DNA of 64,000 nt from Acidobacteriota bacterium (GTDB lineage Bacteria; Acidobacteriota; UBA4820; DSQY01). The stretch's first letter is position 1; the number at the start of each line of letters is the position of its first letter. A program made the translations under genes and the position numbers. The stretch is from NCBI GenBank assembly GCA_021778515.1, contig JAJYCJ010000001.1, positions 4,396 to 68,395 on the forward strand, given 5' to 3'. This document shows positions 16,291 through 52,960 of this stretch, one piece after another. The notes beneath the pieces are model-generated. The model worked only from the letters and a program-made list of their open reading frames with translations. It made no database searches and was not told the DNA's origin.

Positions 16291-16303
16291 GCCGGGAGCG
16301 GTC

Positions 16304-27392: not shown

Positions 27393-28741
27393 GCCCTGTG
27401 TCCCTCCCCGATCACGTCCGCGTCCACCGGACCTTTCTTGATCTTCTGGTCCAGGAGATAGATGAACAGCGCGAAGAGCAGGATGTAGACGAAGGTGAAG
27501 AGGATGAGGGAGGCCAGCGTCTCCCCCGCAGTCACCACGGGCGACAGGGCGTCCTTCGTCCGGAGGAGCCCGTAGACGATCCACGGCTGGCGCCCCACCT
27601 CCGCCGATACCCAGCCGAGCTGGTTCGCCAGTTCCGGGAGCACCACGGCCACCACCAGGATCTTGAGGAACCAGCCCTTCTCGAAGAGGGTCTTTCGCCA
27701 CCAGAAAAAGACCCCGAGCACGCTGATGAGAATGAGCGCCATGCCGATGCCCACCATGGCGTGGTAGGTCTGGAAGACGATGTTGACGGGAGGGCGGTCC
27801 TCCGGCTTGAAGGCGTCGAGCCCCGTCACCGGCTTGCTGGCATCGCCGTAGACCAGCCAGCTCAACATGCCGGGCAGGGCCACCGAGAAGTCCACCTTCT
27901 GGCCCGATTCGTTGACCCAGCCGAAGAGGCTGAGGGGGGCGCGGGGTTCGGCCGCCGGAAAGATCCCCTCGTAGGCCGCCAGCTTGGCCGGCTGATATCG
28001 GGCCACGAGCCTCGCGCTGGTATCGCCGGTCACGAGCTGCAGCAGCGAGGCCACGATCGCCACCACCAGGGCGATTTTCATGGAGGCCTTGGCGAAATCC
28101 GTATGGCGCTTCTTCAACAGGTAGAAGGCGCTCACGCTGATGACGAGGAAGGCGCCCGTCTGAAAGGCCGCCACGAGCACGTGGCTCAACCGGTCCACGG
28201 TGGAGGGGTTGAAGACGACCTGCCAGAAATCGGTCACCTCCGCCCTTGTCCCGACGGCCGTCTGGACGATGTGGAATCCCGCCGGCGTCTGTTGCCAGGA
28301 GTTGGCCACGATGATCCAGAGGGCGCTGAAGATGGAGCCGAGCGACACCATCACGGTGGAGAAGAAGTGCATCCTCGGACTCACCCGGTCCCATCCGAAG
28401 AGGAGGATCGCCAGGAACCCCGATTCCAGGAAGAAGGCGAAGATTCCCTCCGCCGCCAGGGCGCTCCCGAAGACGTCGCCCACGTACCGGGAGTAAGCGG
28501 CCCAGTTCGTGCCGAACTGGAACTCCATCACGATGCCGGAGGCCACGCCGATGGCGAAGATCAGGCCGAAGACGCGGACCCAGAAGCGGGTCATCGCGTG
28601 GTAGACCGGACTGCGCGTCTTCAGGTACATCCCCTCCATGACCACCAGGATCAGCCCCAGGCCGATGGTGAGCGGAGGGAAGATGTAATGAAACGAGATC
28701 GTCCAGGCGAATTGGAGACGTCCCAGGGTCAAGACATCCAT
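27389..28741 (-). CDS. cydA: Cytochrome bd ubiquinol oxidase subunit I (short Q-loop)
   Basis: 450 aa; heme-ligand and Q-loop motifs ([31 protein letters not shown]). Confidence 0.9.
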
Positions 28742-28750
28742 CCAGACCTC

Positions 28751-29260
28751 CTATGTGATCTTCTGATCCTTCCCCGATCGGGCTGACCCGCCCTTCTCCG
28801 CGAGTTTCCGCCCACTCCTCGTTGGGCCGTGCTTTCCTCCGCCTCGCTGATTTCGGATGCTGGCTGCCAGGGCATCGAATCGGACGCCGTCCAGGTACTG
28901 GGACAGGTGCTGGGTCGCGCCGGCCCAGGACGCCTGCACGGGGCAGAGTTCGGCCAGCGGGCATGCACCAGCCTGCGTCAGGCAGGTGTTCATGGCGATG
29001 GGACCTTCCATCGCCTCGATCACCTCCCTGAGCGACACCCGCGACGGCGGCCTGGCCAGCGTCACCCCGCCCTTGTTGCCCCGCACGGTGATGAGGAGGC
29101 CCGCCGCCGAAAGCCGGCTCACGATGCGGCGGATGAAGGCGGGGGGGATGAGCCGGCTGGCGGCGATTTCGCGCGCCGTCACGCGGGTCCCCTCCTCCAG
29201 CGAAGCCAGGTGCAGCACGATACGCGCCGCGTAGTCCGTCTGCCGACCGATGACGATCAT
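28751..29260 (-). CDS. Rrf2 family transcriptional regulator (IscR/NsrR-like, three-Cys cluster motif)
   Basis: wHTH N-terminus (GRQTDYAARIVLHLAS...TAREIAASRLIPPAFIRRIVSRLSAAGLL) and Cys triad C-x6-C-x5-C (CLTQAGACPLAELC); its stop overlaps the cydA start by 11 nt. Confidence 0.85.
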   Translation of the reverse strand: MIVIGRQTDYAARIVLHLASLEEGTRVTAREIAASRLIPPAFIRRIVSRLSAAGLLITVRGNKGGVTLARPPSRVSLREVIEAMEGPIAMNTCLTQAGACPLAELCPVQASWAGATQHLSQYLDGVRFDALAASIRNQRGGGKHGPTRSGRKLAEKGGSARSGKDQKIT

Positions 29261-38659: not shown

Positions 38660-39652
38660 TCAGTGGGCCAGGAGCGGGTCGAGACCGCAGGCGAGCATGA
38701 CGGCGAGGGCGAAGAGGTTGATCTGCATGAAGGCCCGACCGGGCGAGAAGCCCTCCCCTGCCGCGAGCAGTTTGCGCGAGGCCCACGCCAGCCAGGCGGC
38801 GCAGAGCACGAGCGCCACGACCGATGGGAGGGAGCGGACAACGCCGAAGAGGGGCAGGAGCAGGCTCGAAAAGGCGGTGGCCATCATCCAGACGCACGTG
38901 ATCCGCGAGAGCTGCCCCGGAGAAAACACCTGGGTGAGGGTGGGAAAGCCGGCCTGCTCGTACTGATCGCCGTACTTGAGCAACAGGAGCCAGAAGTGCG
39001 GGATCTGCCAGACGAAAAAGAAGAAGCTGAGCGCCAACAGACCGCCGTCCTCCAGGCGCCCGCCGCCGGCCACCCAGCCGATGGCCGGGGGGATGGCTCC
39101 GATGATGGAACCCGGAACCACCGCGAAGGCGGTGACCCTCTTGAGGGGCGTGTAGAGAAGATTGTAGGAGGCCACGGCGGCGGCTCCCAGGAGCGCGCAG
39201 AGAGCGCCGACTCCCAGCAGCAGGACCGCCTCGCCCCCCACCAGCAGAAGGAGCGAGACCAGGAGTCCGCCCGAGGGCGTGATCAGGCCCGCCGGGATGG
39301 GCCTCCTCCGCGTGCGCGCCATGAGTGCGTCGGTCTTCCACTCCTGCACCTCGTTGAGCGCCCCCGCTCCGCAGGAGAGCAGGAGGGTCCCCGCGAGGGC
39401 CACGAACATCTCCCAGTGGAGGGAGCGGGCCGCCAGCAGGTACCCCGTGGCCGCCGAGAAGGTGGAGAGGACGGCGATGTTGAACTTGGTCAGGACGCGG
39501 AGCAGGCCAAGGGAGCCCCGGACGTCCCGCGTCCGGCTGCTGGGCTGGCCCAGGCCCATCGCATCCGAAGGCCGAGCGGCATCCCTTCTGGGCGCCGCGG
39601 GAAGCGCCACCTCCCGGCTCCAGATCGCTGCCCTCGTCCTCACGTCGGCCAT
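38660..39652 (-). CDS. ctaB: Protoheme IX farnesyltransferase (heme O synthase), UbiA family
   Basis: Nine TM helices; UbiA Asp-rich region (NEVQEWKTDALMARTRRRP); RBS GGGAG before ATG; directly downstream of cox subunit II. Confidence 0.85.
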   Translation of the reverse strand: MADVRTRAAIWSREVALPAAPRRDAARPSDAMGLGQPSSRTRDVRGSLGLLRVLTKFNIAVLSTFSAATGYLLAARSLHWEMFVALAGTLLLSCGAGALNEVQEWKTDALMARTRRRPIPAGLITPSGGLLVSLLLLVGGEAVLLLGVGALCALLGAAAVASYNLLYTPLKRVTAFAVVPGSIIGAIPPAIGWVAGGGRLEDGGLLALSFFFFVWQIPHFWLLLLKYGDQYEQAGFPTLTQVFSPGQLSRITCVWMMATAFSSLLLPLFGVVRSLPSVVALVLCAAWLAWASRKLLAAGEGFSPGRAFMQINLFALAVMLACGLDPLLAH

Positions 39653-39663
39653 CGTGGCTCCCG

Positions 39664-40572
39664 CTACTTCAGGGTCTTGATATAGGCGATGAGGTCGTTC
39701 ACGTCCTGGGGCGTCAGGTCTTTCTGCACCGGCATGACGCTGGCGGGATAGCTCTGCACGATATCCGCGTTGGGGTCGAGGATGGACCGCTTCAGGTAGT
39801 CGTCATCGGCCTTGACGGTGCGCGTCTTGCCGTTGGTTGTCACGGTCACCTCGGAGTCGTAGAGCCCCTTCCAGGTGGGGCCCACGATCCTGATCCCGGT
39901 GATGCTGTGGCAACCGATGCAGCCCTTGGTCTTGTACAGGAGCTCGCCGTGGGCCGGACCTGTGGCGGCCTCCTGGGTGCTGTACCACTCCTTGAACTTG
40001 TCACCCGGCATGATGACCACGTTGGCCATCATCAGGGGGTGCCCCTGGCCGCAGTAGCTGGAACAGAGCAGGTCGTAGGTGCCCAGCTCGGTGGGGTCGA
40101 ACCAGGCGAAGTTGTGCTTGCCCGGCACCACGTCCTCCTTCACGCCGAAGGCCGGAATGAAGAAGCCGTGGATCACGTCCAGCGAGTGGAGGTCGCAGCG
40201 CACGGGGGTGTCGATGGGGAGCCGCAGCTCGCTGCTCACCTTGCCGTTCGGGTACTTGAACGACCAGGACCACTGACGCCCCGTCACCTCCACCTGCATG
40301 GCGTCGCGGGGCACCTCCCGCATCTGCTCCCAGCGCGTCCATCCGAAGTAGAACATGGAGAGGAACAGGAGGGTGGGGATGATGGTCCAGGTGGCCTCCA
40401 GGGCCACGTTGCCGTGGATGTCCTTGGGCTTGGGGTTCCTGCTCCGGCTGTAGCGGACGACGAAATAGATCATCGTCGCCGTGATGCCCACCAGGAAAAG
40501 GGCGGAGAGAGCTACGATGTAGATGAAGACGTGAGTGACGCTCTCGGTCAGGCTCGTGCTGGCTGGATTCAT
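39664..40572 (-). CDS. ctaC: Cytochrome c oxidase subunit II with C-terminal cytochrome c domain (caa3-type)
   Basis: Two N-terminal TMs; QWSWSFKYP; CuA site CSSYCGQGHPLM; C-terminal CIGCH heme c motif. Confidence 0.9.
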   Translation of the reverse strand: MNPASTSLTESVTHVFIYIVALSALFLVGITATMIYFVVRYSRSRNPKPKDIHGNVALEATWTIIPTLLFLSMFYFGWTRWEQMREVPRDAMQVEVTGRQWSWSFKYPNGKVSSELRLPIDTPVRCDLHSLDVIHGFFIPAFGVKEDVVPGKHNFAWFDPTELGTYDLLCSSYCGQGHPLMMANVVIMPGDKFKEWYSTQEAATGPAHGELLYKTKGCIGCHSITGIRIVGPTWKGLYDSEVTVTTNGKTRTVKADDDYLKRSILDPNADIVQSYPASVMPVQKDLTPQDVNDLIAYIKTLK

Positions 40573-40578
40573 GGACCG

Positions 40579-40884
40579 CTACCTCAAAGCCACGTCGAGA
40601 AAGGTCAGTCCGAGGAAGATGATGATGATGCACAGCGTCACCATCAGCATGATCCTGAAGAGGGTCTTCTCGTACTTCAGGTGCATGAAGAAGAAGACCA
40701 CGAGAGCCGCCTTGAGCGGGCTGATGATGAAGGCCGCCAAGGAGTTCCATCGCCCCCCGCCCATGTGGAGCAGGGAGATGGAGGAGAGCAGGAGCGTGAG
40801 CCCCACCAGGGCCGCCCACACCAGGGTGTAGGTGGTGTAGCTGACGACGTGGATCTCTTCGGTCGCTTCGTGAGCCACGGCCAT
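40579..40884 (-). CDS. Cytochrome c oxidase subunit IV (bacterial caa3-type small subunit)
   Basis: 101 aa, three predicted TM helices, positioned between subunits III and II. Confidence 0.7.
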   Translation of the reverse strand: MAVAHEATEEIHVVSYTTYTLVWAALVGLTLLLSSISLLHMGGGRWNSLAAFIISPLKAALVVFFFMHLKYEKTLFRIMLMVTLCIIIIFLGLTFLDVALR

Positions 40885-40890
40885 CCCCCC

Positions 40891-41526
40891 TTACGCCGCC
40901 AAATAGAAGAGCGGAAGCAGGAAGATCCAGATGATGTCCACGAGGTGCCAGTAAAGCGCGGCGTTCTCCAGGAAGACGAAGTGCTCCTGGGTGACCTTTC
41001 CGCGCGCCATCAGAATGAGCGCGGCGGTGAGCACGGCGATGCCGGCGATGACGTGCAGGCCGTGCAGTCCCGTCATGACATAGTAGAGCGAGAAGAAGAG
41101 CTGTTCCCCCGGCTTGCCCTGGAGCAGATGGGAATGCGGGAAGTAGCCTTGGCGGATGTGGCCGCTCCACTCCACGGCCTTGACAATCATGAAGGCCACG
41201 CCGGTCAGAATGGTCGTCCCCACGAGCCCCATGGCCAGCTTCCTTCTGCCCCGCTGGAGGGCCGTGATGGAGCTGGCCACGGCGAAGCTGCCCGTGAGCA
41301 GGACCAGCGTGTTGGCCACCCCCAGGATGGCGTCCATGTGGCTGCCGCCCGCGCTGAAGGCTCGCGGATGATCGGCCCTGTACATGGCGTACAGGACGAA
41401 CAGCCCGCCGAAGAGCATGCACTCCGAGAGGAGGAAGAGCCACATGCCGAGCTTGGCGCCCTCGTAGTCCCTGTGTTCCTCGTGGGCGTGTTCGGCCCGC
41501 CCCGCTTCCGCAGCCACGTCGCTCAT
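40891..41526 (-). CDS. ctaE: Cytochrome c oxidase subunit III
   Basis: 211 aa; conserved subunit III helices (GMWLFLLSECMLFGGLF...HGLHVIAG...LYWHLVD). Confidence 0.85.
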   Translation of the reverse strand: MSDVAAEAGRAEHAHEEHRDYEGAKLGMWLFLLSECMLFGGLFVLYAMYRADHPRAFSAGGSHMDAILGVANTLVLLTGSFAVASSITALQRGRRKLAMGLVGTTILTGVAFMIVKAVEWSGHIRQGYFPHSHLLQGKPGEQLFFSLYYVMTGLHGLHVIAGIAVLTAALILMARGKVTQEHFVFLENAALYWHLVDIIWIFLLPLFYLAA

Positions 41527-43154
41527 GATGCGAACGCTCCTTCGAAGTCATAGGCCTTTTCGGGGATCGTGGGGGGTTCCAGGAAGTTCTCGGTGGGCGG
41601 AGGCGAGGGGATCTGCCATTCGAGCGTCACGCCGCCCCACGGGTTGTCGCCGGCCTTTTCGCCCTTGAACACGGACACGATCAGGTTGGTGAAGACCACC
41701 AGGATACCCGCGATCATGATCCAGGAGCCCACCGTGGCGATCACCTGGGGCGTCTGAAACCGCGGGAGGTAGAAGGCATAGCGGCGGGGCATTCCCATGA
41801 CGCCGAGCACGAACATGGTGAAGTAGAGGAGGTTGAAGCCCGTGAACAGGAGGGCCCAGCCGATGTACGCCGCGCTCCGGTTGTACATCCGGCCGAACAT
41901 CTTGGGCAGCCAGTAGTGCAGGGCGCCGAAAAAGGCGAAGGCCGCCCCGCCGAAGATCACGTAATGGAAGTGGGCCACCACGAAGTAGGTATCGTGGAGC
42001 ATGACGTTCAAGGCCAGGGCGCCGAGAATCAACCCGGTGAGGCCGCCCACGGAAAAGAGAAAGATGAAGCTCAGGGCGTAGAGCATGGGCGGTTCGAGCG
42101 CGATGGAGCCCTTGTAGAGCGTCGCCGTCCAGTTGAAGACCTTGATGGCGCTGGGCACGGCGACCAGGAAGGTGAGGAGCGAGAAGACCGTGGCCGCCGC
42201 GTCGCTGAGGCCCGAGGTGAACATGTGGTGGGCCCAGACCAGGGAGCCCAGGAGCGCGATGCCCATGGAGGACCACACGATGGCGCCGTAGCCGAAGATG
42301 GTCCTGTGCGCGAAGGTGGGGATCATCTCCGAGATGAGGCCCATGGCGGGCAGGATCATGATGTAGACAGCGGGGTGGGAGTACATCCAGAACAGGTGCT
42401 GGTAGAGGAGCGGGTCGCCTCCCATGGCCGGGTTGAAGATCCCCACGTGAAAGATCCTCTCCACGAAGATCAGCAGCATGGTGATGCCGAGGACCGGCGT
42501 AGCCAGGACCTGCACCCACGAGGTGGCGTAGAGCGCCCACGGGAAGAGGGGCATCTTGAACCAGCCCATGCCCGGCGCCCGCATCCTGTGCATGGTCGTG
42601 ATGAAGTTGATTCCCGTGAGGATCGAGGAGAACCCCAGCACGAAGACGCCGAAGACCGCCATGGGGATGTCGGCGTGCGTCCTCAGGCTGTAGGGGGCGT
42701 AGAAGGTCCAGCCCGTGTCCGGCAGGCCGCTCCCGAAGAGGGAGGCGAGGGCGATGACGGCCCCGGTCACGTAGAGCCACCAGGAGAGCAGGTTGAGCCT
42801 CGGGAAGGCCACGTCCTTGGCGCCGATCATGATGGGCATGAAGAAGTTGCCCAGGGATCCGGGGACGGCCGGAATGATGAAGAGGAAGATCATGATCACG
42901 CCGTGCAGCGTGAACAGGGCGTTGTAGTAGTCCGCGTTCTTGAAGAGCTCGCCGTGGGGCGAGAGCATCTGCAAGCGCATGAGGAAGCCCAGCGACATCC
43001 CCACGAAGAAGAAGAACAGCGTGGAGACCAGGTAGAGGATTCCGATCCGCTTGTGGTCGGTGGAAAAGATCCAGCCGAAGATGCCGCTGAACCGGCCGTG
43101 ATCCTCAAGGTAGCTCGCCGCGCCCGCGCGCGGCGGCGCTTCGGAAGTCGTCAT
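41523..43154 (-). CDS. ctaD: Cytochrome c oxidase subunit I
   Basis: 543 aa from MTTSEAPP; heme/CuB ligand motifs (WFFGHPEVY-type region HPAVYIMILPAMG, HHMFTSG, VAHFHYV); 4-nt overlap with subunit III; the ORF finder fused it with SCO1-antisense sequence. Confidence 0.9.
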   Translation of the reverse strand: MTTSEAPPRAGAASYLEDHGRFSGIFGWIFSTDHKRIGILYLVSTLFFFFVGMSLGFLMRLQMLSPHGELFKNADYYNALFTLHGVIMIFLFIIPAVPGSLGNFFMPIMIGAKDVAFPRLNLLSWWLYVTGAVIALASLFGSGLPDTGWTFYAPYSLRTHADIPMAVFGVFVLGFSSILTGINFITTMHRMRAPGMGWFKMPLFPWALYATSWVQVLATPVLGITMLLIFVERIFHVGIFNPAMGGDPLLYQHLFWMYSHPAVYIMILPAMGLISEMIPTFAHRTIFGYGAIVWSSMGIALLGSLVWAHHMFTSGLSDAAATVFSLLTFLVAVPSAIKVFNWTATLYKGSIALEPPMLYALSFIFLFSVGGLTGLILGALALNVMLHDTYFVVAHFHYVIFGGAAFAFFGALHYWLPKMFGRMYNRSAAYIGWALLFTGFNLLYFTMFVLGVMGMPRRYAFYLPRFQTPQVIATVGSWIMIAGILVVFTNLIVSVFKGEKAGDNPWGGVTLEWQIPSPPPTENFLEPPTIPEKAYDFEGAFAS

Positions 43155-43156
43155 GT

Positions 43157-43990
43157 TCAGGACCTCGCCTCTCCATGCTTGGCCTTGCGGTTGGGGTTCG
43201 TGAACACCAGGAACGCCACGAAAGCGAGCGCTGACAAGATGACCGCCACGCCCGAGAGGGCCATGACCCTCGAAACGAGCACGCTGCCCTTGGGCCGGAT
43301 GCTGAAGCAGGAGAGGAGCTCGCCCACGATCCTGCCGCCCGTCTTCTCCTTGGCCGCGTCGGCGAGGGCCATCTGGAGGGCCGAGGGCACGTAACTGACG
43401 CCGTAGAGGTACTGGACCACCTTGCCCTTCGGGCTGAGCACGATGAGGGTGGCGGGGTGGATGTACATGTCCTCGTCCTTCTGGTAGCTGAAGCCCACCG
43501 CGTCGGTGACCTTGTCGATGTCGGCCTTGTCGCCGGAGAGGAAGAGCCAGTCCTGCGGCTGGATGGGCCTTTTGACGAGGGCCATGTAGTTGCGCTTCTT
43601 GTCCGCCAGGATCTGCGGGGTGTCCGTGGGGTCGAAGCTGATGGAGATGATCTGGTAGTCCTTGCCGGGATCGAGGGGCATCCGGTTCACAACGCCCGCC
43701 ACCCCCTCCAGCAGGCGCGGGCATATGCCGGCGCACCGAGAGTAGAAGAGGGCCAGGACCGTGGGCTTGGTCATGACCTGCCCGAGGGTGACCTCGCGGC
43801 CCTGCGAATCCGTGAACTTGGCGTCCAGGGGAACCTGGGCGCCCAGCTTCTCGGTCACGCCCTCGACGGTGATCTTGCCGGGGGTCTGGGCCATGACCGC
43901 GGCCGCCATCATGAGCCCGAGGCCCGCCGTCCATATCACCCGCAAGGCACCTCGGCCCGAACGCACCAATTTCCGTTCTTCTCTCTTCAT
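43157..43990 (-). CDS. SCO1/SenC family copper chaperone
   Basis: N-terminal TM, thioredoxin-like domain with CxxxC (CAGICP) and the conserved His region; immediately upstream of cox subunit I. Confidence 0.85.
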   Translation of the reverse strand: MKREERKLVRSGRGALRVIWTAGLGLMMAAAVMAQTPGKITVEGVTEKLGAQVPLDAKFTDSQGREVTLGQVMTKPTVLALFYSRCAGICPRLLEGVAGVVNRMPLDPGKDYQIISISFDPTDTPQILADKKRNYMALVKRPIQPQDWLFLSGDKADIDKVTDAVGFSYQKDEDMYIHPATLIVLSPKGKVVQYLYGVSYVPSALQMALADAAKEKTGGRIVGELLSCFSIRPKGSVLVSRVMALSGVAVILSALAFVAFLVFTNPNRKAKHGEARS

Positions 43991-44261
43991 GGTCCCAAAT
44001 CACCCAGGAATCACGCGTACGTCTCGTATATTTGGGGGACGGGCCGCCGCCGCCGGCGCCTCTTCGGGAAGGTCCGTTCTTCCCGCCCTGCCGTCCGATT
44101 CAACTCCCCGCGCCTGCGCTTGCGGGCCCGTTCCACTCCCTCTCCAATGCTTCAGGAGCGGCTCCCTCACCCTCCGCGGGGCTCGCATGGATAGTGAAAC
44201 AGCCGATGAACGAGATTATTCGCCCGCAGGGGGACAAAGGCGATCGCGCGCAGCCCCGCCC

Positions 44262-45194
44262 TCAAGTCCCCTCCCGGCGGGCCTGCGGCGGGGACCCCGC
44301 TCCCGTCGGGCCGGCCAGGCCCGCCAGCTCTTGCTGGAAGAGCTTCCACTGCCGGGCATCGAGCCCCGCCACGCCCGGGTCCAGGCCGTTGTTCGGCGGG
44401 TCCGCCACGGCCACGCGAACGAGGGCATCCAGATCGCTCTGCCAATCGGGGACCTGGGCCAGGACCCGCGCCGTGCGGCCCGGGTCCTTCACGAGCCGCC
44501 TGACGAGCCGCGCCCCCTGGCTGTCGTCTCCGGGAGGAGGCATGGGGATCGCGGGGGGCCGCTTGTAGTCGGCCGCCATGTGCTTCATGACCGTCGGGAC
44601 CGCCACCTTGCTGGGCGTCTCGCTCCCCTTCGAGAGGTTGAACTCCTTGTCCAGCGCCGCGATCTGCTGCGGCGTATCCTGGCCGTGGTCGAAGTGGCCG
44701 AGGGACTGCACGTAGTGGGCGAGAGCGAATCGGTCCATGGGCGTCAGGGTGTCGTAGGAGGCCATGCCCGTCCCCGCCACCCCTTTCGAGAGGGTCCGGT
44801 AGATGTCGGCGATGGTGTAGCCGTTGGTCCAGCCGTTGGGGCTCGTAAAATTGCGCGGCTTCGGATTGAAGGCCACGGCGGCCGGCCCGTTTCCCTGGCC
44901 AGCCGGGCCGTGGCAGGCCACGCAGTTGGCCTGGAAGAGCTTCTCTCCCTGGGCCACCGCCTTGGGCGTGGATTGGAAAGCGTCGTCCAGATCTACCCCA
45001 GGCTTCTGGTTGCCTTTCACGGTGGGAAAGATCGTGGGGTCCGAGGGGACCGCCGTGGCCTCCCTCCACTCCTTCTGCTGCTTGGAGATGAGGCCGCCCT
45101 TGGGCAGGAGCATGAAACCGAGGATCGCATAGAGGCCGGCCAGCACGAGGACCAGCGCTACCACGGAAAGGGCCTGCTGCTGCTTCTTGTTCAT
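44262..45194 (-). CDS. Membrane-anchored monoheme cytochrome c with about 130-aa C-terminal extension
   Basis: Start at MNKKQQQALSVVALVLVLAGLYAILG (TM anchor); class I cytochrome c domain with CVACHG; 16 nt downstream of actF. Confidence 0.75.
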   Translation of the reverse strand: MNKKQQQALSVVALVLVLAGLYAILGFMLLPKGGLISKQQKEWREATAVPSDPTIFPTVKGNQKPGVDLDDAFQSTPKAVAQGEKLFQANCVACHGPAGQGNGPAAVAFNPKPRNFTSPNGWTNGYTIADIYRTLSKGVAGTGMASYDTLTPMDRFALAHYVQSLGHFDHGQDTPQQIAALDKEFNLSKGSETPSKVAVPTVMKHMAADYKRPPAIPMPPPGDDSQGARLVRRLVKDPGRTARVLAQVPDWQSDLDALVRVAVADPPNNGLDPGVAGLDARQWKLFQQELAGLAGPTGAGSPPQARREGT

Positions 45195-45210
45195 CGGTCG
45201 CGCCTTTCGC

Positions 45211-46362
45211 TCAAAGCCTGAATTCCAGGCCCTCTTGCAGGAAGGGGTCGCCCACCGGTGTGTCCTCGCCCTTGGCCATGGCTGCACGGGCGGCGAGCAG
45301 GCCCAGCGGCAGGAAGAGGAGGGCGAAGGAGAGCTCGGGCCACCCCAGCCGGACCTTCGCACCCACCGCCGGGAAGATGAGCCAGTAGAGGTCGATCAGC
45401 ATGAAGGCCAGAACCCAGAGGGAGACCCACCGCAGGCGCTTGGGATTGGTCTTGGCCTTCCGGCTCACGAGAGCGAGGAACGGGACGAAGAAGTGGCCGA
45501 TGCCCAGGATGAGCGACAGCGCCAGCCAGCCCCCGGTGGTCCGCTGCTTGAACCAGAAGACCTCCTCCGGCATGTCCCCGTACCACATGAGCATGTACTG
45601 GGCGAAGGCGATGTAGCCCCAGAAGACCGTGAAGGCGAAGAGAAAGCCGCCCAGGTTGTAGAGATGGTCCTTCGTGATCCCGGGCAGTCGTCCGCGATTG
45701 TAAAGGTACAGCGTGCCCAGCGTGGTGGCGGCGAGTCCCGACAGGAAGGTCCCCGCGAAGAGGTAGACGCCGAAGATGTCGCTGTACCAGACGGGCTCCA
45801 GGCTGGAGATCCAGTCGAAGGCCACCGTGGTCAGCGTGAGGGCGAAGATGGCCAACACCAGGGGCGCGTAGCGCCGGAGGCGAACGGTGATCATGGGGTC
45901 CCTGCTTCGGTCCTGCTCGAAGGAGCGCTTCACCACGAGCCGGTAGGCGAGGAACCAGAGAGCCACGCAGGCCAGGGTCCGAATGATGAAAAACGGCGTA
46001 TTGAGCCATGCCGACTTGAGGACCACCGCCGGCACCGACGCGCCCTCGGGCCTCGCCCACGGATAGAGCACGGGCAGGCACAGGAGGGCAGCCACCACCA
46101 GGGGCGTGACCCACAGGGCCAGGCTGGAGAGGCGTTCGGGCACGCGCCTGAGAGGCACGCTCCAGACGGACTGGACCTGGTGCTCCAGGGCCACGATGAA
46201 GAGGCAGCCCAGGCCCACGGCGATGCCGAAGACCATCCAGACGAGCCAGTTGGCCCAGAAGCGCGCCGGCCCCTCGACGAAGTAGGTGGCCGCCGCTCCC
46301 GACAGGCCCACGGCGGAAAGAAGGAGGAGGTTTCTGACCATGGTCCCGCTTCCGCTGCTCAT
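45211..46362 (-). CDS. actF: Alternative Complex III subunit ActF (NrfD-like polytopic membrane subunit)
   Basis: 383 aa, about 10 TM helices, homologous in architecture to ActC; ATGA overlap with the actDE stop; the ORF finder fused it with upstream sequence. Confidence 0.8.
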   Translation of the reverse strand: MSSGSGTMVRNLLLLSAVGLSGAAATYFVEGPARFWANWLVWMVFGIAVGLGCLFIVALEHQVQSVWSVPLRRVPERLSSLALWVTPLVVAALLCLPVLYPWARPEGASVPAVVLKSAWLNTPFFIIRTLACVALWFLAYRLVVKRSFEQDRSRDPMITVRLRRYAPLVLAIFALTLTTVAFDWISSLEPVWYSDIFGVYLFAGTFLSGLAATTLGTLYLYNRGRLPGITKDHLYNLGGFLFAFTVFWGYIAFAQYMLMWYGDMPEEVFWFKQRTTGGWLALSLILGIGHFFVPFLALVSRKAKTNPKRLRWVSLWVLAFMLIDLYWLIFPAVGAKVRLGWPELSFALLFLPLGLLAARAAMAKGEDTPVGDPFLQEGLEFRL

Positions 46363-47489
46363 TGCACGTCCTCCGGCTCTGCGTGCTGGGAGCGCTGCAA
46401 GGCCCTGACGTAATCCACGATGGCCCACCGGTCGTTGGCCGACAGGTCCGCGGCGTAGCTGGGCATGGCTCCCTTTCCCGCGGCAATGACGTAGTAGATG
46501 TAGCCGTCGGGCGCCTCGCGGTAGGTGGAGGCCTGGAGGTCGGCCGGCTTGGCCGTGTAGGCCGAGGTCAGCCACGGCTTGCCCGTCCCCAGGCGGTCGT
46601 GGCAGACGGCGCAGTGGTTGTTGAACAGGTCGCGCCCGGCCTGAAGGACGGCCGGCGTGACCGGGAGGGGGTTGATCAGCTCCTTCCCCGCCTCCTCCGG
46701 GCTCTTGGCCAGCAGCGGCATGTACCCTCGGGCCACGGTCCCGACGGGGGGGAGCTGCATGCCGTGGCCGTCCGCGAAGAAGGAGTCGGCCTTCTGCGCG
46801 TCGAGCCTGGGCTGCACCTCCATGTGGACCATGGGCGGAAGGGTCGGGTAGATCTTGATGGCCCAGGCGGTGCCGAAGCCCGTCACCACGCAGGCGGCGG
46901 TGATGCCGGAGAGGGTCTTGAGCCACCAGCCCAGGCCGGGAGGCGTCGAATCGGGAGCCGCCAGCACCTCCACCTCGGAGCCGCCCGTCTCCAGGAGCGC
47001 CGCGCTCGCCGCCTCCACGTCCAGCACCCCTGCCTCCGGCATGATGAGGAGGCCGAACCTGTCCTTGGTGGTCCCGCGGATGGCCTTGGAACCGAGGATG
47101 GGACTGCCGAAGAAGGGCAGCTTGTTGAAGAGGAAGAGCATGGCCAGCCCGGCGGTGAAGGTGGCGAAGAGCACCGTCACCTCGAACATGACCGGGACGA
47201 AGGCCTGCCAGGAGTTGAAGGGCTTGCCGCCGATCACCAGCGGGTAGTCCACGGCGCTCGTCCACCATTCGAAGAGGAAGCCGCTCACGGCCCCCAGAAC
47301 GGCCATGATGAAGACCAGCGTGCCCAGCCGCGATTTCTTCAGGCCCAGCGCCGCTTCCATCCCGTGGACGGGGAAAGGCGTGTAGGCCTCCAGGCTGGAG
47401 AAACCCCTGGCCTTGATCCCGGGGATCGCATCCAGGAGGGCCTGCGCGGTGGGATAGAGGGCGAGGACTCCGAAGGGCGCCTCAGGCAT
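46359..47489 (-). CDS. Alternative Complex III ActD-ActE fusion (DUF3341 membrane subunit plus monoheme cytochrome c)
   Basis: N-terminal ActD-like domain with TM helices (about 170 aa), and a C-terminal class I cytochrome c with CAVCHD...MPSY; a single 376-aa ORF. Confidence 0.8.
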   Translation of the reverse strand: MPEAPFGVLALYPTAQALLDAIPGIKARGFSSLEAYTPFPVHGMEAALGLKKSRLGTLVFIMAVLGAVSGFLFEWWTSAVDYPLVIGGKPFNSWQAFVPVMFEVTVLFATFTAGLAMLFLFNKLPFFGSPILGSKAIRGTTKDRFGLLIMPEAGVLDVEAASAALLETGGSEVEVLAAPDSTPPGLGWWLKTLSGITAACVVTGFGTAWAIKIYPTLPPMVHMEVQPRLDAQKADSFFADGHGMQLPPVGTVARGYMPLLAKSPEEAGKELINPLPVTPAVLQAGRDLFNNHCAVCHDRLGTGKPWLTSAYTAKPADLQASTYREAPDGYIYYVIAAGKGAMPSYAADLSANDRWAIVDYVRALQRSQHAEPEDVQ

Positions 47490-48870
47490 GGCCCACCTCC
47501 GCTGCGTGTTCGGGCTGGGCGTGGGGCACGTCCATCTTCACCTCGCTCGTGGCGATGACCGGTAGCACGCGTGCGAACAGCAGCACCAGCGTGAAGAAGA
47601 GACCGAAGGAGCCCAGCAGGATTCCGAAGTCCACCAGGGTGGGGATGAACACCCCCCACGACGAGGGCAGGAAGCTGCGGTGGAGTGAGAGGACGATGAT
47701 GGTGTACCGCTCGAACCACATGCCCACCGTGACGCACGACGAGACGAACAACATCACGGGGAAGGAGCGCCTGAACCGGGGCACCCAGAGGAGCTGGGGA
47801 ATGATCACGTTGCAGGTGATGGTGATCCATCCCGCCCACCACTGGTCGCCGAAGACGTAGTTGTAGAAGGTGTACCGGATGTAGGTGTTGGAGCTGTACC
47901 AGGCCGTGAAGCCCTCCATCAGGTAGGAGTAGCCCATCAGGCAGGACATGGTGAGGATCATCTTGTTCATCATGTCCATGTGGGTCATGGTGATGAGGTT
48001 CTCCATGTGCATGGTCTTGCGCACCACGGAGAGCACCAGCACCACCATGGCGAAGCCCGCGAAGATGGCCCCCGCCACGAAGTAGGGCGGGAAGATGGTC
48101 ATGTGCCAGCCCGGCACCAGGGAGACGGCGAAGTCGAAGGAGACCACGCTGTGCACGCTCAGCACGAGGCCGGTGGCGAGGCCCGCCAGCAGGAGGTAGG
48201 CCCTCTCGTAGTGGAGCCAATTCCTCGCGGAGCCCACCCAACCGAGGCTGAGGACCCGATAGATGCCCTTCCGGAGCCTGCTCGTGGTCCGCTCGCGCAT
48301 GGAGGCCAGATCGGGCATGAGCCCCAGGTACCAGAAGAGCAGCGACACGCTGAAGTAGGTGCTGACGGCGAAGACGTCCCAGACCAGCGGGGAGCGGAAG
48401 TTGATCCAGAGGTCCCGCACGTTGGGATAGGGAAACAGCCAGTAGCCGAACCAGGGGCGGCCCACGTGGATCAGGGGGAAGATGCCCGCGCAGCAGAGGG
48501 CGAAGATGGTCATGGCCTCGGCCGCCCTGGATATGGCGTTGCGCCAGCGCTTCCTGAACATGAAGAGGATGGCTGAGATGAGGGTCCCGGCGTGGCCGAT
48601 CCCCACCCAGAAGACGAAGTTGATGATGGGGAAGCCCCATGCCACGGGGACGTTGTTGCCCAGCGTCCCGATGCCCTCGTAAACCAGATAGCCGATGCAC
48701 CCGAATCCCATGAGCATGATGAGGCTCGTGATGGTGATGGCGATGAACCATCCCCGGCCCGGCTTGGTCTCCGGCCACGCCAGCACCTGATCATCGAGGC
48801 TGCCGACGGTGACCGGCCCCTCCATCAGCGGCTGGTGGCGGATCGCTTCGGGAAGCAGAGCCTCAGGCAT
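47482..48870 (-). CDS. actC: Alternative Complex III subunit ActC (NrfD/PsrC-like quinol-interacting membrane subunit)
   Basis: 462 aa, about 10 TM helices, typical ActC N-terminus; 8-nt overlap with the actB stop. Confidence 0.85.
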   Translation of the reverse strand: MPEALLPEAIRHQPLMEGPVTVGSLDDQVLAWPETKPGRGWFIAITITSLIMLMGFGCIGYLVYEGIGTLGNNVPVAWGFPIINFVFWVGIGHAGTLISAILFMFRKRWRNAISRAAEAMTIFALCCAGIFPLIHVGRPWFGYWLFPYPNVRDLWINFRSPLVWDVFAVSTYFSVSLLFWYLGLMPDLASMRERTTSRLRKGIYRVLSLGWVGSARNWLHYERAYLLLAGLATGLVLSVHSVVSFDFAVSLVPGWHMTIFPPYFVAGAIFAGFAMVVLVLSVVRKTMHMENLITMTHMDMMNKMILTMSCLMGYSYLMEGFTAWYSSNTYIRYTFYNYVFGDQWWAGWITITCNVIIPQLLWVPRFRRSFPVMLFVSSCVTVGMWFERYTIIVLSLHRSFLPSSWGVFIPTLVDFGILLGSFGLFFTLVLLFARVLPVIATSEVKMDVPHAQPEHAAEVGHA

Positions 48871-51747
48871 TCTTGTCCTCCCCTGGGACGGCGGGGTTCT
48901 TGAGCTCGGCCATGTAGGTGATGGCCGGCCGCGTGCCCAGCTCCTCCAGAACCTTGAAGCGGCGGTCGCTGCGGGAGAGGTGGGCCACCCGGCTGTCCTT
49001 GTCGTTGAGGTCGCCGAAGACGATGGCGCTCGCGGGACAGGCCGCCTGGCAGGCCGGCACGATCTCCCCGTCGCGGAGCGGGCGGTGCTCGTCCTGGGCC
49101 ACGCGCCTGCCGTTGACGATGCGCTGCACGCAGAAGGTGCACTTCTCCATGACGCCCCGCGGCCTCACCGTGACCTCGGGATTGAAGGCCAGGTCCAGCG
49201 GGTCCTTGATGAAGCTCGTGTAGTCCAGGAAGTTGAAGCGGCGCACCTTGTAGGGGCAGTTGTTGGAGCAGTACCTCGTGCCGACGCAGCGGTTGTACAC
49301 CATCTGGTTCAGGCCGTCGGGGCTGTGGGTCGTGGCCGCCACGGGACAGACGTTCTCGCAGGGGGCGTCGTCGCACTGCTGGCAGAGCATGGGCTGGTGG
49401 ACCACCTTCGGGTTGCCCGCGTCCCCTTCGTAGTACTTGTCGATCCGGATCCACTGCATCTCCCGCCCCCTCGACACCTGCTCGGGGCCCACCACGGGGA
49501 TGTTGTTCTCGGACTGGCAGGCGATGACGCAGCCGTTGCACCCCACGCAAGCCGACATGTCGATGGCCATGCCCCACTTCTCTCCCGTGTAGGGGTGGCC
49601 CTTGTAGAGGGTCACCTCCTGCTCGCCCTGGGGGTGTGCCGCCTCCTTCTTGTACTCGTCGAGGTCCCACAGCCTGACGATGTCGCGGCCCTCCAGGGAG
49701 AAGTGTTTTTGAGTCCTGCACAGCTCGCGATGGCCTCTGGTCGGGATCACGGCCGCATCCGTGCGAAGGAACGGGGAGCCCCCGGAGGCCATGAGGGGGA
49801 AGGCGTTGACGCCGATTCCCGATGCGACCCTGCCCTCCGTGCGCCCGTACCCCAGGGGAAGGGTGAGGACTCCTTGGGCCTGGCCCGGCTGGACCAGCGC
49901 GGGTACCTCCAGGCTCTTGCCGCCCACCTCGATGCGCAGCAGATCTCCGTCCTGCACGCTCAGCCTCTGGGCATCGGCCGCCGAGATCAGCGCGGCGCAG
50001 CCCCAGGTGAGGTCGGTGACGGGTTCGGGCAGCTCCTGGAGCCAGCCGATGTTGGCGTAGCGTCCATCCCACAGCTTCAGGTCGCGCACGAGCACGAGGT
50101 CCATGCCTTGGCCCGCGGGAACCTTCGCCCTGTCAATCGCTTCGACCAGGGCCGCGCTCTTGGGCTGGCGGGGCGCCCTGGGCTCCACATCCAGCCTGAG
50201 CACGCCATCGTGCACCGCCCCGTTCCAGTAGGCCTCGAAGGGCACTGGCGAGGCGGCCGGGTAGACCTCCCTCCGCCAGCGCCCCATGACGTAGAGCCTG
50301 TAGTCCGTCTCCACGGGTGCGCCTATGGCCTTGGCCCACCGCAGCAGGACCTCCTCCGCCTGACGGGTCTGGTAGAGCGGGCGGATGAGGGGCTGCTGGA
50401 GGCTCAGCAGATCCGTTCCCGCCTCGAAGTCCCCCCAGGACTCCATCCAGTGATTCACGGGAAGGACCACCTGGCAGGTCTTGGCCGTCTCGTCTTCCCG
50501 GAGGCCCAGCCGCACCCTGAGGGGCACGCGGGAGAGACCCTGGACGAAGGAGCCCGCGTCGGGCTGGTCGTAGGCCGGGTTCGCACCCCATACAATGGCC
50601 GCCGCGTACACACCGGAGGCGAGGTCCTTGGCGAGTACGGCCATGTCCTCAGGGGCCGCGAGCTGCACGGGCGCAGGCGCGAAGCCGGCGTCCACCGTGC
50701 TGCCCTCGGCGCCCAGCATGGCGTTGAGCAGCGAGACGGCGGCGTGCGCCTCGTAGGGAAGGCTCGGCCCGGCTGCCACGAGGGCCGCAGGACCCGCCTT
50801 GGCGAGGTCGTCCACCATGACCCCGAGGAGATGGAGGTCCAGCCCCTGCGCCCTGGCCACCTCCTTGAGCGCGAAGGGCGCCAGGGTGCTCGACGCCAAT
50901 CCGTCCGGAAGGGCCAGATGGTGGCGCTCGTGGAGCTCCAGCGCCAGGGCGAAAGCCACCGCGGCCGCCGCGGAGGGACGCATGGGAAGGCGGTGGTCCG
51001 CCTTCGTACCCGTGAGCGTCAGCGTGCCCTCCAAGGCGTAGAGCCGGTTCATCGGCTCCGTCGGCGAGGAGAGCCGCCGGTTCGCGGCGAAGCCCCGGAT
51101 GGCCGGGACGGCCTGGTCCATCGTGCCCAGCAGGTCCGCCTCCAGCGCCACGATCACCTTGGCCTTTTCCAGGTGGTAACGCGGGCAGAGGGCCTCGCCG
51201 AACACGGCCTGGGCCGCCGCGCGCCCCGCATGGTCCGCCGCGGGCTCCCACGCGACGTGCCGAAGCGTGGGCAGCACCGATTTCAGGTCGTTCAGGACCG
51301 CCCGCTGGCTCGGGGAGATCACCGCGGGCGTCACCAGGAGCAAGGCCTTGCCGCCCGAGGCGGCCGCCTTCAGGGCCGCAACCACTCGGCTGTCCACCGC
51401 GGCCCAGTCGGCGGGGTGTCCGTCCATCACGGGCTGCCTGAGCCGGTCCGGGTCGTAGAGGCCGATCACCTCCGCCATGATCCGCGGCGAGGTCTTGCCC
51501 TCGAAGAGGGGGTGCTCGTCGTTGCCGTCGATGTGGATGGGCCTGCCCTCGCGGGTCTTGACCAGCACGCCGTAGGGCACGAGCCCCTCCTGGACGGTGC
51601 TGGCGTAGTAGTTGGCCACGCCGGGGATCACCTCCGAAGGCTTCTTGGTGTAGGGAACGATGGTGTCGCCTTCGGGCGCTTGACAGGCGGCCGTGGCGGC
51701 GAGGGCCGCCGAGGCCCCCATGAGGCCCAGGAAGCGCCGCCTGGCCA
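48863..51747 (-). CDS. actB: Alternative Complex III subunit ActB (fused molybdopterin-oxidoreductase-like B1 and 4Fe-4S ferredoxin B2 domains), Tat-exported
   Basis: Tat motif MARRRFLGLMGASAALAATAA with RBS AGGGAG 5 nt upstream of ATG 51747; C-terminal Cys clusters (CVGCNGCVIACQSENN, CQQCDDAPC, CPYKVRRFN); the ORF finder offers an alternative GTG start at 51889 that adds 47 aa. Confidence 0.85.
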
Positions 51748-51881
51748 TGGGCTCCCTGGGCGGCTCCATGGGAGTGAGACCGTTCGGGCTCTCACTGCCA
51801 TCCCATCCGCCCGGGGTCACCGCCGCGGCCTTTGGCGGGAGGACCTTCCAGAAGGCCCTCCGCTTTTCGTCCCTCTCCTCG

Positions 51882-52091
51882 TTAGCCACGGCGTTTCACC
51901 GAGTGGAGCGGGCCGGCCACCCTTCTCGATGGCAGCGGGCCCCTCTGAGCGGCTTCCTCGCCGGCACCGGCCGGTGCGGCCGGGCGGGGGTACTCCCCAC
52001 CCCGCCCCCAGAACCTGCGCCCCAGGGCGAGGTTCCCCAGGAAGGCCGCGAGCATGCCCGCCAGGACCTTTCGACGACTCGTACCGGTCAT
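51882..52091 (-). CDS. Small hypothetical membrane/Tat-like protein (69 aa) between actA and actB
   Basis: ATG 33 nt after the actA stop with RBS GGAGAG; MTGTSRRKVLAGMLAAFLGNLALG hydrophobic N-terminus with an SRRxxL Tat-like motif; high GC3; the upstream part of the listed ORF 51882..52712 is the alternate frame of actA. Confidence 0.3.
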   Translation of the reverse strand: MTGTSRRKVLAGMLAAFLGNLALGRRFWGRGGEYPRPAAPAGAGEEAAQRGPLPSRRVAGPLHSVKRRG

Positions 52092-52123
52092 GGACACTCT
52101 CCTCTGCATCCTTGCCTCGGCTC

Positions 52124-52687
52124 TCATCGGTGACAGGCGTTGCAGTTGGTGGGTCCGGCCTGGATCGGCGAGCCCGGCGGGAGATAGCGCCTCGGGTCCC
52201 GGTGGCAGGCCAGGCAGTGGCCCATCCGCATGTTCATGACGCGCCTCACCCGGTCCATGTCCTGCACGTCGCCGTGGCAGCTCTGGCATGCGATGCCTGA
52301 GTTCACGTGCGGCCGGTGGTCGAAATAGACGTGGTCGGGGAGCTCGTAGATCCGCTTCCAGAGCAGCGGCTTGTTCGATTCGTAGATGGCCGTGAGCTCT
52401 TTGATGTACACGTTGTTGGTCTTGGCATAGCGATGACAGTTCATGCAGGTCTGGACCGCCGGAACGGTGGCGTGCCGAGAGCGCGTCGCGTTCGTATGGC
52501 AGTAGAGGCAGGGGATCCTCATCTGTCCGGCGTGAAGGCGGTGAGAGAAGGGGATGGGCTGTTTCGGGGCATAGCCAAGGACGAATCGGTCCGGCTCCGC
52601 GACCCATCCCACCGTGATCATGGTGATGAGGACGGCCGTTGCGCCGATGGGAATCGCGAACCGGAACAGACGGTCTAGCGGATGCAT
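52124..52687 (-). CDS. actA: Alternative Complex III subunit ActA (pentaheme cytochrome c)
   Basis: Five CxxCH motifs (CLYCH, CMNCH, CQSCH, CLACH, CNACH); N-terminal TM; start at MHPLDRLF with RBS GGGAGGAGG. Confidence 0.85.
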   Translation of the reverse strand: MHPLDRLFRFAIPIGATAVLITMITVGWVAEPDRFVLGYAPKQPIPFSHRLHAGQMRIPCLYCHTNATRSRHATVPAVQTCMNCHRYAKTNNVYIKELTAIYESNKPLLWKRIYELPDHVYFDHRPHVNSGIACQSCHGDVQDMDRVRRVMNMRMGHCLACHRDPRRYLPPGSPIQAGPTNCNACHR

Positions 52688-52960
52688 AAACCTCCTCCCA
52701 ATGGGGCCGCACAATTCTCTCTGCCTGGTTCCATCACGGCCTACTATCCCACAAGACTATCGTGAAATGGAATGTGAACGTGCCTCATCCATCCAAATCC
52801 TCTCGTGTAACCGGGCCCCGTTTTCGATTATTCCCCGCCGCCGCGGCCGTCCGTGAGGGGCCGATAGGGCCACGCGGTCCGTCGGCCACGGCAAGAAGAA
52901 AGCGCGCCTCGCGCGCGGGGTGGCTCGGCGTGCGGCCTGAGCCGGCGCCGGGGCCCGTCG

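Follow-up and report, generated by a model that had tools for sequence, protein, structure and literature searches.

A respiratory "superoperon", in which Alternative Complex III (ACIII) is followed directly downstream by a heme-copper cytochrome c oxidase (A2 type, caa3 architecture) with two of its assembly factors, very probably (probability about 0.9) accounts for the 13 co-oriented minus-strand genes at positions 38660–52687 of the window, the 64-kb stretch of Acidobacteriota DNA analyzed here. It is a well-preserved, ordinary aerobic respiratory cluster of a kind known from Acidobacteria and other phyla. Its only uncharacterized members are two small accessory genes, a small ORF between actA and actB and a membrane-anchored cytochrome c encoded after actF.

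Menaquinol would be oxidized at a periplasm-facing site in ActC, and the electrons would pass via the ActB iron–sulfur clusters to ActA, with its five hemes, and to the ActE-domain heme. Their next station would be the cytochrome c domain that oxidase subunit II carries. They could enter it directly, as happens in the ACIII–caa3 supercomplex formed in Rhodothermus marinus (PMC5928083), or via the anchored cytochrome c, and would continue through CuA and the low-spin heme to the heme–CuB center, where O2 would be reduced. ActC/ActF and the oxidase are the expected sites of proton translocation. SCO1 would load CuA, and CtaB would make heme O. Judged by gene identities, this quinol-to-oxygen pathway of ACIII, c-type carrier, oxidase and biogenesis factors, which had been proposed in a first-pass annotation of the DNA, appears to hold.

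Layout of the cluster

All of the genes were found at the coordinates given in the first-pass annotation (Table 1), and the same 13 were called independently for this sequence in the public MAG GCA_027388645.1. The assigned identities agree with Pfam, NCBIfam and solved-structure matches: the Act, Cox and SCO1 products were all placed, ActF through its structure matches only, and Pfam and NCBIfam together assigned every product of the cluster but ActF and the small ORF. Inside each half of the cluster, neighboring genes either overlap by 4–8 nt or are separated by gaps of 2–32 nt. The spacer between the halves has no Rfam family and an RNA fold z-score of 0.39; its identity to relatives, 87%, is the same as that of third codon positions in the neighboring genes. 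The genome has a GC content of 67%, and GC3 of the cluster reading frames is 0.85–0.94, a strong third-position bias as in real genes; the corresponding values are 0.81 for the small ORF and 0.59–0.72 for the three frames of the spacer. The upstream boundary is marked by a terminator-like hairpin after asnS, GCGCGC-GAG-GCGCGC followed by a T-rich tail (2 overlapping matches, compared with 0.3 expected). A cytochrome bd oxidase is encoded 10 kb from the cluster, and this uncultured lineage would have a branched aerobic chain made up of ACIII and the A2 oxidase, plus cytochrome bd.

Table 1. Features of the respiratory cluster, listed from its upstream boundary (positions in the window).
Feature	Position	Strand	Remark
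Terminator-like hairpin after asnS	52902-52916	-	upstream boundary of cluster
ActA	52124-52687	-	stop codon included
Small ORF, 69 aa	51882-52091	-	stop codon included
ActB	48863-51889	-	stop codon included
ActC	47482-48870	-	stop codon included
ActD-ActE fusion	46359-47489	-	stop codon included
ActF	45211-46362	-	stop codon included
Membrane-anchored monoheme cytochrome c	44262-45194	-	stop codon included
Spacer between ACIII half and oxidase half	43991-44261	no strand	271 nt
SCO1	43157-43990	-	stop codon included
CoxI	41523-43154	-	stop codon included
CoxIII	40891-41526	-	stop codon included
CoxIV	40579-40884	-	stop codon included
CoxII with cytochrome c domain	39664-40572	-	stop codon included
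CtaB, heme O synthase	38660-39652	-	stop codon included

ACIII subunits and accessory genes

Each of the six Act subunits matched its counterpart among the chains of four solved ACIII structures, with E-values from 1e-29 to 1e-201. ActA is a pentaheme cytochrome c with five CxxCH motifs in its translation and an N-terminal hydrophobic membrane helix; at 187 aa, it has the short form seen in R. marinus. It matched Pfam Cytochrome_C7 (E = 1e-14) and the ACIII chains 8k9e_A (8e-40) and 6f0k_A (2e-38), and a GGAGG stands upstream of its ATG at 52687. In ActB, a molybdopterin-like domain (B1) is fused to a NrfC-like iron–sulfur domain with four clusters (B2), and Pfam detected Fer4_7/Fer4_11 and Molydop_binding domains. 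About 48 residues into the protein there is a twin-arginine signal (ARRRFLGL), residues 73–999 matched 6lod_B (3e-201), 8k9e_B and 6f0k_B (1e-192), and the GTG start codon lines up with the ATG of homologues. ActC and ActF are both NrfD-like membrane subunits. ActC, which has a predicted quinol site, matched Pfam NrfD and 6f0k_C (6e-162); ActF matched 6f0k_F (1e-55), 6lod_F, 6btm_F and 8k9e_F, and no Pfam or NCBIfam model.

The fusion of actD and actE noted in the first pass was borne out, as both halves of a single 376-aa protein matched separate ACIII chains: 6f0k_D at residues 6–177 and 6f0k_E at residues 209–375 (each ≈2e-29). Pfam placed ActD (PF11821, DUF3341) at residues 7–174 (9e-53) and cytochrome c at residues 282–364. 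Two membrane helices belong to the ActD part, and a third helix, which replaces the lipoprotein signal of ActE, leads into the monoheme ActE domain (CAVCH). Residues of R. marinus ACIII that have been proposed to couple quinol oxidation and proton transfer (ActC Asp169 and Ser245, ActD Glu122 and ActF Tyr284; PMC5928083) align with Asp165 and Ser238 of ActC, Glu103 of the ActD part and the tyrosine of FWGYIAF in ActF, respectively.

The 69-aa ORF between actA and actB starts with SRRK and a hydrophobic stretch, resembling a Tat signal or a single membrane helix, and has a basic tail ending in HSVKRRG; its stop codon overlaps the ActB start (GTGGCTAA). It had no family match in Pfam or NCBIfam and no match in the PDB. 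Two related Acidobacteriota loci (L003 and L004) preserve its frame, its length and the motifs at either end, and homologous ORFs occur at the same position in the Gemmatimonadaceae loci L006 and L007, as well as in L083, where the homologue is called as a gene of 67 aa, and L085. A 70-aa ORF called at this position in L087 is a candidate homologue by position and length, and the ORF is absent at the L084 and L088 loci. An all-against-all phmmer search returned only two short relatives. Among close relatives, the three codon positions differ little in identity, which points to weak constraint. The ORF recurs across the ACIII subfamily of the present locus.

The anchored cytochrome c (310 aa) consists of a helix at residues 3–29, a heme domain at approximately 75–165 (CVACH) that resembles ActE, and a conserved, cysteine-free and heme-less helical C-terminal domain at residues 175–294. 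A cytochrome c of ≈305 aa always follows ActF in this ACIII subfamily, in the place where other lineages have ActG. We took ActG, the optional seventh ACIII subunit, to be a small protein that has a single helix, is encoded after actF and bears G-x-V-x-I-P-I-x-x-A-M as its C-terminal motif. A profile of 28 ActG genes from other lineages matched the solved ActG (8k9e_G) at E = 0.009 and no ORF in loci L001–L005, the present locus included, in line with the earlier statement that actG is missing. The anchored cytochrome c, which has the N-terminal helix, gave a profile–profile match to the ActG motif over 23 columns (P = 8e-4, probability 24%), a score reached by 3 of 200 shuffles.

A rather speculative reading of these features is that the ACIII subfamily of this Acidobacteriota clade, the Gemmatimonadota and the Binatia has a subunit composition unlike any solved ACIII. 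Besides the ActD–ActE fusion, it would comprise perhaps one more subunit with a single helix, namely the product of the 69-aa ORF, whose translation would be coupled to that of actB, and, in place of ActG, a 305-aa anchored protein that keeps the ActG anchor and docking motif and has gained a heme domain like that of ActE as well as a heme-less domain resembling cytochrome c. Such an ACIII would carry a seventh heme, with a second exit for electrons built in. The small ORF and the anchored cytochrome c are reasonable targets for structural work on this subfamily.

The oxidase half and alternative readings of the cluster

The oxidase genes stand in the order I, III, IV, II, and subunit II bears a cytochrome c domain; here too, the earlier assignment agrees with Pfam, NCBIfam and matches to 2yev, the caa3 oxidase of Thermus thermophilus. 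CoxI matched Pfam COX1 (7e-148) and TIGR02891 (5e-197; score 655.6, just below the cutoff of 670.75), and its best PDB match was 2yev_A (2e-130). It carries WMYSHPAVY (YSHPAV, A2-type) where GHPEVY would stand; in the A2 subtype of the Pereira classification, a Tyr–Ser motif in helix VI replaces the D-channel glutamate. CoxIII is of the short form (211 aa; Pfam COX3, 1e-22), and CoxIV is of the caa3 type (TIGR02229 caa3_sub_IV, 68 bits, above the cutoff of 37; Pfam COX4_pro). CoxII has a CuA site and, at its C-terminus, a cytochrome c domain (CSSYCGQGHPLM and CIGCH in the translation), scored above the cutoff of TIGR02866 CoxB (183 bits) and matched Pfam COX2, COX2_TM and Cytochrom_C. It aligned with 2yev_B over its whole length (residues 7–302, 1e-36), including the fused cytochrome c domain. 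Unlike the Thermus enzyme, in which subunits I and III are fused, the present cluster encodes them separately. The A2 label is in use for acidobacterial oxidases (PMC8407424).

The two genes previously named as biogenesis factors agree with Pfam SCO1-SenC (8e-13) and UbiA (4e-43). The SCO1/SenC copper chaperone has a C-terminal membrane helix and a CAGIC motif in its translation, and its gene lies ahead of the oxidase genes, the same position as in many phyla. CtaB also matched TIGR01473 cyoE_ctaB (3e-55; 188 bits, just below the curated cutoff of 210). The name caa3 presupposes a heme A synthase, as heme A in both sites needs CtaA in addition to CtaB, and no COX15/CtaA was found within the 64-kb window. 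If the oxidase were not a heme-A enzyme, heme O synthase being present and heme A synthase lacking, it would be a cc(o/b)o3-type A2 oxidase like that of Melioribacter roseus, in which ACIII with a fused ActDE is clustered with an A2 oxidase of the cc(o/b)o3 type that supports aerobic respiration (PMC5492636), and the label caa3 would be wrong. However, CtaA is often encoded elsewhere in the genome, the scope here being 64 kb, and subunit IV passed the cutoff of a caa3-specific model. Furthermore, the A2 oxidases beside ACIII in cultured Acidobacteria have been treated as caa3 (PMC8407424). We consider a non-heme-A enzyme unlikely, and the oxidase is presumably of the caa3 type.

The ACIII identity and its link to the oxidase can be questioned as well. 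The best named NCBIfam matches of ActA and ActB are QrcA, QrcB and QrcC (1e-24, 3e-36 and 3e-60), as expected if the Act-like genes encoded a relative of Qrc or Dsr/Nrf-type complexes that reduces rather than oxidizes the quinone pool. These matches all fall far below the curated cutoffs, however, and ActB and ActC matched ACIII chains at 1e-160 to 1e-200, compared with 1e-17 to 1e-60 for Qrc/Dsr models. With ActD, ActE and ActF present and matching ACIII chains specifically, and with an oxygen reductase adjoining the cluster, this reading is highly improbable. A less remote, though still doubtful, proposition is that the two halves are separate units, adjacent by chance, with an oxidase promoter inside the spacer and with ACIII and the anchored cytochrome c serving as a general quinol:cytochrome c module for any cytochrome-c-dependent acceptor. 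The first-pass annotation had pointed to a lone long gap at this place; it measured 271 nt, and there is no other long spacer in the tightly packed cluster. Five loci of the same subfamily (L006, L007, L083, L086 and L087) carry ActA–ActF and the cytochrome c with no oxidase downstream; therefore, ACIII need not go together with this oxidase in the subfamily. In Flavobacterium johnsoniae, moreover, the electron path has been proposed to split at ActA/ActE (PMC8552683). Against this, the spacer contains no sigma-70-like promoter pattern and no intrinsic terminator pattern. In L084 and L088, it is missing altogether, and the equivalent genes abut or are fused (cytochrome c–SCO1, 488 aa). The order ACIII–SCO1–oxidase recurs in several phyla, and a functional link would survive separate transcription. 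A superoperon, whose halves may be co-transcribed, is the preferred reading.

Gene order in relatives and known systems

The same gene order was found in three related Acidobacteriota MAGs (L003–L005), a Binatia MAG (L084) and one further metagenome contig (L088). At least five phyla have ACIII with SCO1 and an oxidase behind it, and the linkage was seen in Bryobacter, Solibacteraceae, Planctomycetota, Fodinibius and Chloroflexia. That oxidase clusters frequently come after ACIII clusters has been stated as a generality (PMC5928083), cultured Acidobacteria have been shown to carry and express an "ACIII-A2 caa3 superoperon" (PMC8407424), and a fused ActDE has been reported in M. roseus (PMC5492636). 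The arrangement is therefore not unusual, and the earlier description of a non-textbook combination did not stand: the synteny recurs in relatives, where NCBI already annotates the fused protein, under the name "ActD". The cluster is one more instance of a respiratory module understood in outline, and it has small weight alone. Standard models cover the Gemmatimonadota/Binatia-type ACIII subfamily incompletely, as seen from ActF and the small ORF, which have no Pfam or NCBIfam model, and from the naming of the fused ActDE. This partial coverage may account for the small number of Gemmatimonadota genomes in which surveys have reported ACIII (PMC9426454).

Among known systems, the superoperon of Terriglobus roseus and Acidobacteriaceae KBS 83 (PMC8407424) is alike in phylum, concept and polarity, with an A2 caa3 oxidase directly downstream of ACIII; its gene-level layout was published as a figure, and the A2 caa3 superoperon of cultured Acidobacteria is transcribed down to nanomolar O2. 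The present Act proteins, however, are much closer to those of Gemmatimonadaceae (56–68% identity) than to those of other Acidobacteriota, such as Bryobacter and Solibacteraceae (33–57%). M. roseus is alike by description: it has a fused ActDE, which proteomics of aerobic cells detected and whose gene shares a cluster with an A2-type oxidase (PMC5492636), but it belongs to the phylum Ignavibacteriae, and its oxidase was reported with hemes o/b, not a.

Supercomplexes of ACIII with an oxidase are documented in R. marinus and F. johnsoniae (PMC5928083, PMC8552683), and one may form here. R. marinus ACIII–caa3 (PDB 6F0K; PMC5928083) shares the short pentaheme ActA, homologous ActB–ActF and the coupling residues. 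Its oxidase, encoded downstream, is likewise of A2 type, and subunit II again bears a cytochrome c domain, which would permit direct transfer from ActE to subunit II. In contrast to R. marinus, ActD and ActE form one polypeptide in the present cluster, no ActG or ActH homologue was detected in it, the 69-aa ORF and the 310-aa anchored cytochrome c are present, and the oxidase genes run I-III-IV-II. In F. johnsoniae ACIII–aa3 (PDB 6BTM; PMC8552683), homologous ActA–ActF feed an A-type oxidase encoded nearby; the present cluster differs in its short ActA and in a subunit II that keeps its own cytochrome c domain.

Identity of the cluster genes and their products

The first-pass annotation described thirteen co-oriented genes on the minus strand encoding an alternative complex III (ACIII), a caa3 oxidase and associated factors. 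The gene set and the named products were confirmed by matches to Pfam, NCBIfam and solved ACIII structures. Pfam and NCBIfam models identified ActA as a multiheme cytochrome, ActB as an Fe–S and molybdopterin-binding-like protein, ActC as NrfD, and the fused ActD-ActE as ActD (PF11821, 9e-53) plus cytochrome c, and also assigned SCO1, COX1, COX3 and heme O synthase. Oxidase subunit IV scored above the cutoff of the caa3-type model, as did CoxB above its own, with a cytochrome c domain on the same protein. ActF, which has no model in Pfam or NCBIfam, was placed instead by its match to the ActF chains of four solved ACIII structures (6f0k_F, 1e-55). The solved ACIII structures were also matched by ActA (8e-40), ActB (3e-201, residues 73–999), ActC (6e-162) and the fused protein, in which residues 6–177 correspond to ActD and residues 209–375 to ActE. 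In the structure-chain alignments, Asp165 and Ser238 of ActC, Glu103 of the ActD part and the tyrosine in the ActF sequence FWGYIAF align with Asp169(C), Ser245(C), Glu122(D) and Tyr284(F), respectively, which are located at the quinol site and proton half-channels in the R. marinus structure (PMC5928083). The best solved relative of both oxidase subunit I (2e-130) and subunit II, the latter over its full length including the cytochrome c domain, is the caa3 oxidase of Thermus thermophilus. Translation of subunit I gave the motif WMYSHPAVY in place of the GHPEVY of A1 enzymes, a mark of the A2 subtype.

An identical ActDE protein is found in a public Acidobacteriota MAG, GCA_027388645.1, for which an independent gene call recovered all thirteen genes in identical order. 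The GC content is 63–71% across the 64 kb of the window, while third-position GC is 0.85–0.94 in the assigned frames, 0.81 in the small ORF between actA and actB, and 0.59–0.72 in the three frames of the spacer. Gene junctions inside each half of the cluster either overlap by 4–8 nt or are 2–32 nt apart. The gene coordinates also bear out the earlier description of a single long spacer, 271 nt at 43991–44261, between the ACIII half, which runs through the cytochrome c gene, and the oxidase half, which starts with SCO1. A regulatory element in this spacer was not supported: no promoter-like or terminator-like pattern was found in it, Rfam returned no family in the whole window, spacer included, and there was no excess of RNA structure in the spacer (z = 0.39). 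At 87%, its identity to relatives is no different from that of third codon positions in the flanking genes, and the apparent conservation therefore reflects close relatedness alone. The window cluster may be transcribed as one unit or as two, and the spacer-free clusters of a Binatia MAG (L084) and a further relative (L088) show that a single unit does occur among related clusters. Upstream of the cluster, the hairpin listed in the table is likely to be an intrinsic terminator separating asnS from actA.

Coordinates of features in the window and in comparison loci
Feature	Position	Strand	Remarks
PAS-PAS-GGDEF-EAL signalling protein, 843 aa	7577–10108	+	unrelated to the respiratory cluster
CydB	26370–27392	-	
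CydA	27389–28741	-	
Rrf2-family regulator	28751–29260	-	
Respiratory cluster	38660–52687	-	thirteen genes
GC-rich hairpin with T-rich tail	52902–52916	-	directly after asnS (asparaginyl-tRNA synthetase), upstream of actA
Gene after actF in comparison loci	L008 12406–12927; L016 12475–12765; L071 8553–9047; 25 others		single-helix, C-terminal motif G-x-V-x-I-P-I-x-x-A-M

Neither heme A synthase nor bc1 complex genes were found in the 64-kb window. A cytochrome bd quinol oxidase operon with its Rrf2 regulator (26370–29260, minus strand) lies 10 kb from the ACIII–oxidase cluster. With this second quinol-to-oxygen route, the organism is predicted to have a branched aerobic chain, of which the ACIII–oxidase cluster would not be the sole branch.

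Distribution of the gene arrangement

The combination of components had been thought unusual, and this part of the first-pass annotation was not upheld. When the window proteins were used as tblastn queries against 82 loci, the order ActA-B-C-D/E-F followed by SCO1-CoxII-CoxI-CoxIII(-CoxIV) was found in Bryobacter, Solibacteraceae, many Phycisphaerales, other Planctomycetota, Engelhardtia, Fodinibius and a Chloroflexia MAG. Three Acidobacteriota MAGs share exactly the order seen in the window itself (ActF, cytochrome c, SCO1, CoxI, III, IV, II, CtaB), with protein identities of 90–98% (79–86% for the small ORF). It recurs without CtaB in the Binatia MAG, and with CtaB in L088, where the cytochrome c is fused to SCO1. 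Oxidase clusters often lie downstream of ACIII clusters, and an ACIII–caa3 supercomplex has been documented (PMC5928083); an "ACIII-A2 caa3 superoperon" is expressed in cultured Acidobacteria (PMC8407424), and Melioribacter roseus has a fused ActDE (PMC5492636). In relatives, the fused protein already carries the name ActD from the NCBI pipeline. Taken together, the recurring gene order, these precedents and the existing name show that the arrangement is already known and annotated. The cluster, although correctly and carefully observed, belongs to an ordinary type of respiratory gene cluster that has been described before, and only its accessory proteins, the 69-aa ORF and the 310-aa cytochrome, might repay further work.

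An initial genome-scan reading, according to which the ActD-ActE fusion was widespread across phyla, was ruled out by frame checking: a single ORF was present in just 9 of 80 loci, and in the rest ActD and ActE are adjacent separate genes. These nine loci are those of the window's clade, together with Engelhardtia, a Planctomycetaceae MAG and two Gemmatimonadaceae MAGs. In the window's ACIII subfamily, which is shared with Gemmatimonadota and Binatia, all of the 120 best protein clusters were ≈376 aa long and carried both domains. Only in this subfamily is the fusion the norm; the Planctomycetaceae MAG, Engelhardtia and Melioribacter (PMC5492636) are separate cases. Between the ActD and ActE parts, the lipoprotein signal of ActE is replaced by a hydrophobic segment, ITAACVVTGFGTAWAIKIY, so that the heme domain could still face the periplasm.

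In a comparison with loci L006–L008 and L024, the Act proteins of the window are 56–68% identical to those of Gemmatimonadaceae, compared to 33–57% for other Acidobacteriota (Bryobacter and Solibacteraceae), and the oxidase genes are ordered I-III-IV-II in the window, but II-I-III-IV in those other Acidobacteriota. These differences suggest horizontal transfer or old paralogy of the whole cluster.

Accessory proteins of the cluster

The family of the 310-aa cytochrome comprises 317 detected proteins, mostly ≈295–320 aa among the matches listed. In all subfamily loci examined, both with and without a downstream oxidase, the gene after actF encodes a family member or a protein of matching size and domains, which argues that this cytochrome goes with ACIII and not with the oxidase. 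In an AlphaFold2 model (pLDDT 90.7), a membrane helix at the N-terminus precedes a class I cytochrome c domain and a conserved helical domain that lacks cysteine; the closest solved relatives of the modeled heme domain include ActE from two ACIII structures. In L088, where ActDE is 59% identical, the gene call at 12291–13757 is a single 488-aa protein that contains both the cytochrome c domain found after ActF and the SCO1 domain, a fusion across the boundary between the ACIII half and the oxidase half. In L085, another relative (ActDE identity 68%), four cytochrome c genes (302, 460, 437 and 303 aa) rather than one lie between ActF and SCO1 (12063–17291).

Other lineages, including Planctomycetota, Bryobacter and Chloroflexia, encode a small single-helix protein after actF. 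A profile of 28 such genes matched the solved chain 8k9e_G of ActG, the optional seventh ACIII subunit, on the motif G-x-V-x-I-P-I-x-x-A-M; the family has no Pfam model. Profile–profile comparison aligned the motif weakly with residues 195–217 of the window cytochrome (P = 8e-4, probability 24%), 3 of 200 column shuffles equaled this score, and a plain search with the 28-gene profile did not recover the cytochrome family. In view of these scores, we regard the possible origin of the 310-aa cytochrome from ActG, by gain of a heme domain, as a lead, not a result.

In the 69-aa ORF between actA and actB, an SRRK motif and a hydrophobic stretch are accompanied by a basic tail with HSVKRRG at its end, and the stop codon of the ORF overlaps the ActB start. 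It is not a known protein, with no match in Pfam, NCBIfam or the PDB, and only two short relatives turned up among 1.8 billion representatives searched. Nor is it a frameshifted N-terminus of ActB, which begins at a separate start codon, in line with the ATG of its homologues, and has its own twin-arginine motif. Among close relatives, substitutions are spread near-evenly over codon positions, indicating that constraint on the ORF is weak. The ORF is absent from L084 and L088. In L087, a 70-aa ORF called in this position is a candidate counterpart. Frame, length and end motifs are retained in two close Acidobacteriota MAGs (L003 and L004), and recognizable homologues occupy the same position in two Gemmatimonadaceae (L006 and L007) and in L083 and L085, where the adjoining Act proteins are only ≈60–70% identical. 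We regard the ORF as a real, lineage-restricted, putative small membrane protein.
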